Shown here: one piece after another, positions 15,601 through 16,581 of the stretch | How positions within the stretch are numbered: position 1 is the stretch's first letter | Layout of the letters: every line of letters begins with the position of its first letter | Assembly: GCA_963676105.1 (NCBI GenBank) | Contig: OY781039.1 | Coordinates: 810,001 to 842,000, forward strand | DNA: 32,000 bases | Direction: 5' to 3' | Source of the DNA: Erysipelotrichaceae bacterium | Lineage (GTDB): Bacteria; Bacillota_I; Bacilli_A; Erysipelotrichales; Erysipelotrichaceae | Made by a program: the position numbers and the translations under genes | Notes under the pieces: model-generated | What the model was told of the DNA's origin: nothing | The model's input: only the letters and a program-made list of their open reading frames with translations | The model's database searches: none

Positions 15601-16581
15601 TCAGTCATATTCAAATCTAGATAAATGTTCAAATGGTAGAATTAAACGGCCACGATAAAGTCCGCAACCATCATTGATGAGCGAATTATCCATGGCCTTA
15701 AACATATTCACATCTAATTGTGAGAGTTCTAATTGTTGAAGAGAGGTCACTCTTTCATAGGCATCATCAAAGTATTTGTTTTCACCTATCGGGATTGCTT
15801 GTCGTTTTGCGCGCTCACTCTCTTGGCGTTTTTCATAGCCTAAGTGATTAGCAGGTCCTATTTCCGCAAAATCATCCATTGTTTTCGTTCTCATTTGAAC
15901 TTCGATATACGATCTTGAGATATTGTCATAAAAAGTAATATGTAAGGATTGATAGCCACTCTTTTCAGGGTTTGCGACATAATCACGATAATAAGGTCTG
16001 ACCTCTTCAGTTAATAAAGGTGATTGAATTGGTCCATCAAATGAAGAAAGTTCAGCTGTAAAACCTCTTTCTTCTAAGAAACCTAATAGTTTATTCGCTA
16101 CATCATAAAGATACTTATTTTCTTCATCTTCAATATTTTGTCCTGCTTTTAAATTGCATTTTGGTAAAGAAATAACGATTCGATACGCAATCAAATCTCT
16201 AAAGAAACTTAGATTATTTCTAAGTTCAACCAAACTTGGATACTTTTGATGCTTTTGAACATAATCATAGATATATTCCACAATATAACCATTGAATTTG
16301 TTTTCAGCTCGTATTAATGATTTAATCCGCCCTTTAAAAGTAAAGGCTAAAAATGGATAGTCTTTAGCCATCATTTGATAGAACTCACGTATACGTTGGG
16401 ATTGAGAGGTTAAAAACTCACGATGTTGAAGAAGTTCCCCAATTTGCAGAAGAAAATTACAATGTAAAAGATCGATTTGATTATCTGTTTTTATGGCTGA
16501 CTCTTTTAAGTCTTTAGCATAGCTTTGAATAATCTTCAAAACTGTATCGCCTGAATATAAGTAATCATTTAGTTTTTTCAT
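15601..16581 (-). CDS. RelA/SpoT-homologue synthetase-domain-only protein (atypical small alarmone synthetase / toxSAS-like), 326 aa
   Basis: All nucleotide-pyrophosphokinase motifs are present in order:
- GRIKSLIRAENK (R-x-K-S...K helix).
- DLIAYRIV (D-x-x-G/A-x-R strand).
- KSGYQSLHITF.
- EVQMRTKTMDDFAE...HLGYEKR (E-x-Q-x-R-T...H...Y-K).

There is no HD hydrolase, TGS or ACT region. ATG start with an AGAGGA SD. The gene is monocistronic, lying between non-coding spacers of 191 nt and about 420 nt. Confidence 0.85.
   Translation of the reverse strand: MKKLNDYLYSGDTVLKIIQSYAKDLKESAIKTDNQIDLLHCNFLLQIGELLQHREFLTSQSQRIREFYQMMAKDYPFLAFTFKGRIKSLIRAENKFNGYIVEYIYDYVQKHQKYPSLVELRNNLSFFRDLIAYRIVISLPKCNLKAGQNIEDEENKYLYDVANKLLGFLEERGFTAELSSFDGPIQSPLLTEEVRPYYRDYVANPEKSGYQSLHITFYDNISRSYIEVQMRTKTMDDFAEIGPANHLGYEKRQESERAKRQAIPIGENKYFDDAYERVTSLQQLELSQLDVNMFKAMDNSLINDGCGLYRGRLILPFEHLSRFEYD

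Follow-up and report, generated by a model that had tools for sequence, protein, structure and literature searches.

The window analysed here, a stretch of 32,000 nucleotides (nt) from contig OY781039.1 of an Erysipelotrichaceae bacterium, carries on its reverse strand a gene for a stand-alone RelA/SpoT homologue (RSH) of 326 amino acids (aa), a putative small alarmone synthetase (SAS) that is referred to below as the SAS protein. The open reading frame (ORF) is intact from ATG to TGA and is preceded by a Shine-Dalgarno (SD) sequence (Table 1), and its G+C content is 0.331, compared with 0.34 for the window. The N-terminal sequence MKKLNDYLY is kept across the aligned relatives, and the annotated ATG is therefore considered to be correct. 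A divergently oriented Ldh_2 gene lies upstream, separated from the SAS gene by an intergenic region containing a palindrome, and an AT-rich spacer of 410 nt separates the SAS gene from a downstream gene for a protein with GAF and HD_5 domains. As judged from its sequence, the SAS protein is probably an orphan small alarmone synthetase that most likely makes (pp)pGpp and belongs to a distinct RSH subfamily, which is conserved but lacks experimental characterisation; a probability of about 0.6 is given to this interpretation.

Catalytic domain, family and predicted fold

The sole Pfam match of the SAS protein is PF04607 (RelA_SpoT), with a score of 49.7 bits (cut-off 27) and an E-value of 5e-13; the alignment is confined to the C-terminal half of the domain (profile positions 57-112 of 113) and corresponds to residues 198-253. 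No HD, TGS or ACT domain was found in the Pfam scan of the 326 residues, and the N-terminal 82 residues and the C-terminal 78 residues are without a Pfam match even at an E-value of 10. The NCBIfam models for long RSHs align to the stretch of residues 198-253 alone, and the score of TIGR00691 is 46.7 bits, far below the cut-off of 499 for a long RSH. The RelQ/YjbM equivalog model of NCBIfam, NF053588 (GTPPhKinYjbM), likewise gives only 17.1 bits against a cut-off of 320. A preliminary description of the locus had proposed a synthetase-only RSH that is distinct from housekeeping RelP and RelQ and had suggested a HMMER comparison with PF04607; these scores, with that of PF04607 above the gathering threshold, agree with both proposals.

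A search of approximately 5.8 billion proteins yielded 3049 homologues, the best 120 of which are all full-length, with 73-100% identity and almost all with a length of 328-336 aa, and originate from Acetobacterium, Clostridium magnum, Anaerocolumna, Lachnospiraceae and Eubacteriaceae. Among 1.84 billion representatives searched exhaustively with HMMER, only about 13 full-length clusters at 50% identity (320-362 aa) were obtained, and these clusters extend to 28-35% identity. By sequence, the SAS protein belongs to a compact family of proteins of 320-362 aa that forms a cluster of its own, with hosts among the Erysipelotrichaceae, Eubacteriaceae, Clostridiaceae, Desulfitobacteriaceae and Lachnospiraceae. 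When one genome per species was scanned, 38 loci were obtained, of which the nearest is that of an Erysipelotrichaceae metagenome-assembled genome (MAG; locus L001), with 87% identity between the SAS proteins; further loci belong to Desulfosporosinus, Faecalicatena, Anaerofustis, Ruminococcaceae and many Lachnospiraceae. The proteins of the family are acidic, with an isoelectric point (pI) of 5.2-6.2, whereas the tRNA-binding enzymes among the toxic small alarmone synthetases (toxSAS) have a high pI. Members (P0015, P0018, P0036, P0042 and others) are widely labelled "guanosine polyphosphate pyrophosphohydrolase", the usual name among the best 120 homologues, or "bifunctional (p)ppGpp synthetase/hydrolase" in the databases; the family has no HD hydrolase domain, and the hydrolase label is a propagated misannotation.

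The RSH catalytic set is complete, comprising G-R-x-K...K, D-x-x-x-x-R, the Tyr and His of the G-loop, E-x-Q-x-R-T and H-x-x-Y, and all of the catalytic motifs quoted in the preliminary description are present in the translation. The spacing of R85, K87 and K95 in the first of these motifs agrees with that of the donor-site residues R64, K66 and K74 of FaRel2 and with those given for RelP (PMC11782079), and the motif DLIAYR pairs in the profile search with DLLAIRV of S. aureus Rel. The G-loop YYRDYVANPEKSGYQSLH, in which GYQSLH occupies residues 209-214, aligns with RFKDYIAAPKANGYQSIH of RelSeq and with FDDYVANPKPNGYQSIH of E. coli RelA. In family members down to 28% identity, R85, K87, K95, D129, E227, Q229, H246 and Y249 are invariant, and R134, Y210 and H214 are at least 90% conserved.

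Around this core, the SAS protein is about 100 residues longer than the RelQ and RelP chains in the PDB (209-237 aa), as the preliminary description had indicated: 81 residues lie from D129 to Y210, 77 residues follow Y249, and in the alignment the G-loop is shifted away from the N-terminus by approximately 96 residues relative to RelQ and by approximately 60 residues relative to RelP. The AlphaFold2 model, which was built from a 38-sequence alignment, is a single body with a mean predicted local distance difference test score (pLDDT) of 90 and a predicted template modelling score of 0.85, without any segment below a pLDDT of 50 and without a low-confidence linker. In this model, three helices (14-74) are followed by β1 (79-86, GRIK), a long helix (89-111) and a short helix (117-124), β2 (131-138, DLIAYR), the helix 150-170, the G-loop, the strands 213-219 and 224-232, the helices 233-257 (of which 246-257 is counted in the C-terminus) and 269-282, and finally three short strands (294-319). 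The N-terminal helices, the enlarged middle region and the C-terminal tail are present in the alignments of all 35 close and 13 distant members. The extensions, which had been described as atypical, are thus real extra structural elements, but they are not peculiar to this protein, being common to every member down to 28% identity.

The β-meander of residues 291-321 is the best conserved segment of the protein, with a mean identity of 88% to the window copy, while the N-terminal region shows 75% compared with 78-79% for the catalytic segments, and the insert between β2 and the G-loop is the least conserved segment (65%). The C-terminal region contains three invariant residues, R277, D304 and G307, as well as R312, the conservation of which is at least 90%. 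The ratio of non-synonymous to synonymous substitution rates (dN/dS) is 0.05 between the window copy and its closest relative, L001; against every other genus dS is saturated and dN is approximately 0.15. Purifying selection on the SAS gene is strong. According to the model, the extensions appear to be integral parts of one compact fold, with a constraint that is the same as or above that on the catalytic core, and they more probably contribute to the active site, to an allosteric site or to an oligomer interface than form a detachable autoinhibitory or sensor domain.

Table 1. Features of the SAS gene and its surroundings in the window (positions in nt; residues refer to the SAS protein)
Feature	Residues	Position	Strand	Basis and remarks
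Coding sequence, 326-aa stand-alone RelA/SpoT-homologue synthetase		15601-16581	-	ORF list; stop codon 15601-15603
SD sequence GAGG		16588-16591	-	6 nt before ATG; direct sequence reading
N-terminal helical region	1-78	16348-16581	-	Helices 14-32, 35-52 and 54-74; model secondary structure
β1 and following helix, motif GRIKSLIRAENK	84-95	16297-16332	-	R85, K87 and K95, predicted binders of ATP donor phosphates
β2 motif DLIAYR	129-134	16180-16197	-	D129, predicted Mg2+ ligand; R134 also conserved
Enlarged β2-to-G-loop region	139-197	15991-16167	-	Acidic loop QNIEDEENKY and helix 150-170
Acceptor-site G-loop YYRDYVANPEKSGYQSLH	197-214	15940-15993	-	Y210 and H214; alignment to RelSeq/RelA
Catalytic strand EVQMRT	227-232	15886-15903	-	E227 and Q229; aligns with EIQIRT of Rel proteins
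H246-L-G-Y249, helix after catalytic strand	246-249	15835-15846	-	Aligns with AAHWAYK of long Rel enzymes
C-terminal region	258-326	15604-15810	-	Helix 269-282, then three-strand β-meander; model pLDDT ~92
C-terminal β-meander carrying NDGCGLYRGRLILPFEHLS	291-321	15619-15711	-	Model secondary structure
Promoter-like site TTGAAA, 17-nt spacer, TATTAT		16621-16649	-	10/12 matches; consensus scan
51-nt palindrome, TATCGGCAATA ... TATTGCCGATA		16632-16682	.	Inverted repeat, 24-nt arms, 79% complementary
Downstream gene, GAF + HD_5 protein		14064-15191	-	Pfam; own strong promoter-like site

Genomic context and horizontal transfer

All ORFs within 6 kb on either side of the gene were clustered over the 38 loci in the style of FlaGs, an analysis that the preliminary description had proposed, and no conserved neighbour was found in the 38 loci; the commonest cluster occurs in nine of them and is non-adjacent, and the flanks of the SAS gene differ even among Acetobacterium species. 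By Pfam, the 127 immediate neighbours are mixed, including AraC/GyrI-like regulators, two-component systems, GGDEF proteins and ABC transporters, and among them genes of defence systems, toxin-antitoxin systems and prophages are not enriched; only two encode transposases. Three deeper clades likewise have the gene alone, on the strand opposite to its core neighbours, which are murA-ftsQ-ftsA on one side and smc on the other in the first clade, an alaS-like gene and HIT on one side and rpsI-rplM-rplT-rpmI-infC on the other in the second, and peptidase, YkuD and NUDIX genes on one side and copA on the other in the third.

Eleven flanking genes are common to the window and L001, largely in the same order and with 69-96% protein identity, and the wider window contains core genes for a UvrD/PcrA helicase, an NAD-dependent DNA ligase, CamS and GatA/GatB, as well as for a class I tRNA synthetase and a tRNA methyltransferase. 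Considering the host-like G+C content, the synteny with L001 and the core surroundings, the window copy is therefore regarded as a native chromosomal gene. The absence of a small partner ORF on either side of the window gene, which the preliminary description had reported, is seen both in the ORF list and in the clustering of the 38 loci. The island-like flanks of that description were not found, and the accessory character that it had suggested holds for the family, which is patchy, variable in context and recently transferred in one subclade, but not for the native and syntenic copy of the window.

The run of ORFs on the reverse strand at 22190-30541 (722, 660, 355, 96, 469 and 474 aa) appears to be pcrA-ligA-camS-gatCAB, an assignment based on the Pfam matches UvrD, NAD-dependent ligase, CamS, Amidase and GatB together with the ORF sizes. 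This arrangement is typical of Bacilli/Erysipelotrichia and supports an Erysipelotrichaceae-like origin of the window.

Upstream of the SAS gene, the promoter-like site is regarded as a candidate only, because such sites are no more numerous in the region than expected from shuffled sequence. The palindrome noted in the preliminary description is real; it has perfect 11-nt ends, the 11-mer of which is unique within the window, and covers the -35 hexamer of the candidate promoter together with most of its spacer. It is missing upstream of the closest orthologue, L001, and is specific to the window genome, where it represents a possible operator. Rfam searches of the window and of ten related loci, and of the conserved leader at permissive settings, gave no match to a riboswitch or known RNA. 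The downstream spacer (15192-15600) contains no convincing intrinsic terminator, only short AT-rich inverted repeats. A gene relic, which had been suspected nearby, was rejected for this spacer, as it has no coding similarity to the neighbour ORFs of related loci, including the L001 gene at this place.

The downstream GAF + HD_5 protein contains HHERLDGSGYP, which we take to be an HD-GYP signature, and from its sequence it would be of the cyclic di-GMP phosphodiesterase type and not an alarmone hydrolase. Its gene was considered as a hydrolase or antitoxin partner of the SAS gene and rejected: homologues occur in two of the 38 loci and are non-adjacent, and the gene is absent from L001, in which its position is taken by an unrelated gene of 233 aa. 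The true start of the GAF-HD-GYP gene is probably the ATG at 15179, after GGAGGTG. Two GGDEF proteins are also encoded in the window.

One subclade of the SAS family, to which the window copy does not belong, shows 83-93% DNA identity across families and orders, its taxa being Desulfosporosinus (Desulfitobacteriaceae), Acetobacterium (Eubacteriaceae), Clostridium magnum and Faecalicatena (Lachnospirales). In the loci of this subclade (L002-L005, L009-L012, L014-L016, L018, L020, L021 and L023, with the gene at approximately 6001-6990 in most), dS is only 0.2-0.4 and the G+C content of the gene is about 0.36 whatever that of the host. The shared DNA consists of the gene with 34-240 nt upstream and approximately 0-120 nt downstream (about 1.1-1.3 kb), with staggered and nested ends, and no other similarity was found in the 13-kb flanks of these loci. 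In this subclade, a unit of about the size of the gene, including its own promoter and leader, has recently been transferred horizontally. A site-specific, integron-like cassette was rejected, as the shared DNA has variable end points without visible terminal repeats.

In the leader of L004 (5948-6006), and also in L010-L012, L014, L018, L020 and L023, an SD-like AGGAAAGGAAAG is set approximately 34 nt from the ATG. The intervening segment of about 34 nt folds into a hairpin of GCATCTGT, an 11-nt loop and ACAGATGC (-12.7 kcal/mol and z -2.3 in L004), the conservation of which lies mostly in sequence, with one covarying pair; A. bakii (L003) is without this segment, and its SD sequence abuts the ATG. 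The hairpin might bridge the two parts of a ribosome-binding site or serve to control translation, both of which are unproven. In L018, from a Bacillota MAG, a 6S RNA gene and a tRNA gene (5167-5425) lie directly upstream of the transferred SAS gene, and this site is a possible insertion hot spot. Within Acetobacterium, truncated or decayed extra copies with ORFs of only 164 and 104 aa (L036:6001-6935 and L037:6001-6327) occur, on the same contig as L011 (Acetobacterium tundrae) and approximately 25 kb away, and A. wieringae has two intact paralogues (P0015 and P0076), which points to duplication and loss within this genus.

Plasmid searches gave no plasmid match covering more than 29% of the query. 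The sole full-length match in the phage collection, with 64% identity, is L044 (GenBank MT835872.1, "UNVERIFIED: Bacteriophage sp."). A phage origin of this copy was rejected, since the entry encodes SbcC/SbcD, DegV, FtsX, HAD and GGDEF genes, and because of this gene content it reads as a bacterial (Lachnospiraceae-like) chromosome in a virome data set. The fold matches of the SAS protein in BFVD are weak and of a generic RSH kind.

Proposed function and alternative explanations

The family profile was compared with the sequences in the PDB, and the E-values were 1.8e-14 for RelSeq, 4e-13 to 2e-12 for S. aureus and B. subtilis Rel, 5e-12 for RelA, 2.5e-10 for RelP, 6e-7 for RelQ, 0.05 for FaRel2 and 0.8 for SaSAS, with neither CapRel nor Tas1 structures among the matches up to E = 1. 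With the single sequence, RelP and RelQ gave E-values of 0.04-0.6, weaker than that of long Rel (5e-8). The top matches of the model in the PDB by Foldseek were RelP 6EX0 (3e-6), RelQ 5DEC and the N-terminal domains of Rel, with FaRel2 at 3e-2, and CapRel and Tas1 structures were not among the matches listed. The PADLOC scan gave a partial match to the candidate family PDC-S33 (26 bits, E-value 1e-6, residues 198-235 only) and none to CapRel.

That the SAS protein is enzymatically active, which acceptor it uses, what its extensions do and how it is regulated are all inferred, as follows. The SYNTH domain would bind ATP-Mg2+ as the pyrophosphate donor via R85, K87, K95, D129 and R134, a purine nucleotide acceptor would stack on Y210 of the G-loop, and E227 and Q229 would drive the transfer of the β-γ pyrophosphate to the 3'-OH of the acceptor. 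The acceptor would most likely be GDP, GTP or GMP, and (pp)pGpp is the most likely product because the acceptor half of the domain is closest to the guanosine-specific Rel enzymes. As the gene is transcribed on its own, its control is probably transcriptional, here possibly via the palindromic operator, and the extensions may add further regulation, such as allostery or oligomerisation. The product could be broken down by a hydrolase encoded elsewhere, such as the long Rel of the host.

Several observations weigh against the proposal of a (pp)pGpp-producing orphan SAS. The likeness to known synthetases is limited to the C-terminal half of the domain, and the template modelling scores of the Foldseek matches are low (0.33 query-normalised and 0.53 target-normalised), from which the fold appears to be divergent outside the core. 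The position of RelSeq K304 is occupied here by E206, is variable in the main clade and is a lysine only in distant clades, and because of this replacement the acceptor preference could differ from that of the canonical enzymes. The family has a patchy distribution with occasional duplicated or decayed copies, and one subclade moves horizontally as a single gene, a behaviour that is more usual for accessory functions than for housekeeping ones. Literature searches found no experimental or biochemical work on any family member.

The replacement by E206, together with the approximately 100 extra residues around the core and the tail residues R277, D304, G307 and R312, which could contact the substrate, would also suit a non-toxic pyrophosphokinase in which family-specific elements redefine the acceptor pocket and the product is non-canonical, such as pGpp only, (p)ppApp or a 3'-pyrophosphorylated form of another nucleotide or small molecule; clostridial synthetases are known to deviate, the RSH and RelQ of C. 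difficile being reported to make only pGpp (10.1101/2021.08.02.454818). This explanation deserves attention but is unlikely, as the motifs DY-x-x-x-P-x-x-x-GYQSLH, E-x-Q-x-RTK-x-M and AE-x-G-x-A-x-H-x-x-Y are very close to those of the guanosine-specific long Rel enzymes, the distant clades retain the canonical PK-x-NGY and no specific alternative acceptor is favoured by the evidence. It is improbable, although conceivable, that the protein is a mobile self-contained pyrophosphokinase in which the β-meander (R277, D304, G307 and R312) and the N-terminal helices gate or remodel the active site, so that it would serve as a single-chain, auto-regulated growth-arrest effector without a separate antitoxin or as a maker of a non-canonical alarmone.

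A toxic or defence function, as put forward in the preliminary description, would require a cis-autoinhibited, CapRel-like single-chain effector, the tRNA-CCA or (pp)pApp activity of which is released by a trigger such as phage. A stand-alone gene without an antitoxin, the patchy family with its variable context, the recent cross-family transfer of a gene-sized unit in one subclade, the extra or decayed copies in Acetobacterium (L036 and L037) and the weak PDC-S33 match would all fit this explanation, but it is very improbable. Conservation is highest in the tail and about equal in the N-terminal region and the core, whereas a sensor engaged in an arms race would vary, and the whole chain forms one confident, compact and linker-free model. 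Both profile and fold comparisons favour (p)ppGpp synthetases over FaRel2 by many orders of magnitude and leave CapRel and Tas1 structures undetected, and the acidic proteins of the family differ from tRNA-binding toxSAS, which depend on basic surfaces (PMC11782079). Moreover, neither defence or prophage enrichment nor plasmid or genuine phage copies were found, and the copies of the window and of the deep clades lie among core genes. A decorated orthologue of housekeeping RelP or RelQ, which the best Foldseek matches and the stand-alone organisation without an antitoxin might suggest, is scarcely plausible, considering the 17 bits of the YjbM equivalog against 320, the weakness of the single-sequence matches relative to long Rel, the C-terminal β-meander in place of a four-helix bundle (PMC11782079) and the separate compact cluster of proteins of 320-360 aa.

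Of the approximately 30 SAS subfamilies that are distinguished by sequence, most have yet to be assayed (PMC7229694). The present family is notable for its tight constraint, which includes about 100 residues outside the canonical core, for its hosts among acetogens, sulfate reducers and gut Clostridia and Erysipelotrichia, for its movement between families as a bare gene and, with regard to annotation, for the pyrophosphohydrolase label that it carries without a hydrolase domain. The identity of the product and the role of the invariant tail would distinguish an extra input to the stringent response from something different. If only (p)ppGpp is made, the SAS protein would be one more accessory SAS, whereas a gating or remodelling role of the tail and the N-terminal helices, if true, would represent a new regulatory architecture for the RSH superfamily.

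Comparison with known synthetases

The tests place the SAS protein outside the orthologues of RelP and RelQ, outside the long RSHs and outside the toxSAS of the toxin-antitoxin and CapRel types. With the toxSAS (FaRel2 8PU3/8PU4, FaRel, PhRel, PhRel2, CapRelSJ46 and Tas1) it has in common the single-domain RSH pyrophosphokinase fold, and, as in the fused CapRel, a single gene is present without a separate antitoxin; the horizontal mobility of one subclade is a further likeness. Unlike the toxSAS, the family has no conserved bicistronic partner, consists of acidic proteins with a conserved tail and shows no tie to defence islands, prophages or plasmids. In the fused CapRel, a C-terminal pseudo-Zn-finger antitoxin/sensor domain blocks the ATP site; this domain is variable, the opposite of the tail of the SAS protein, which is its best conserved segment.

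Like RelP (SAS2, 6EWZ/6EX0) and RelQ (SAS1, 5DEC/5DED), the SAS protein has a single SYNTH domain with the same catalytic residues and is stand-alone without an antitoxin, but it comprises 326 aa, whereas RelP and RelQ comprise approximately 210-230 aa. The C-terminus of RelP and RelQ is a four-helix bundle, which serves as an oligomerisation interface (PMC11782079), whereas the modelled C-terminus of the SAS protein consists of two helices and a β-meander. It is possible that the family is one of the 30 SAS subfamilies defined by sequence (Jimmy et al. 2020). By name, the obvious candidate is cloRel, like the present family a Clostridia-restricted, uncharacterised, synthetase-only RSH subgroup of Firmicutes (Atkinson et al. 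2011, PMC3153485), although the listed taxa do not overlap: those given for cloRel, namely C. difficile, C. perfringens, C. tetani and Finegoldia magna (PMC3153485), are absent among the 38 loci and the named homologues, the comparison being by taxa only.

The highest sequence similarity is found with the SYNTH domain of the long Rel enzymes (RelSeq 1VJ7, S. aureus Rel 7OIW and B. subtilis Rel 6YXA), which are near-identical to the SAS protein in the G-loop and the catalytic half (DYIA-PK-NGYQSLH, EIQIRTKEM and AE-G-AAH-AY). Unlike the long Rel enzymes, however, the SAS protein is without HD hydrolase, TGS, ACT or other regulatory domains, and it is a single-domain protein with N-terminal and C-terminal elements of its own.

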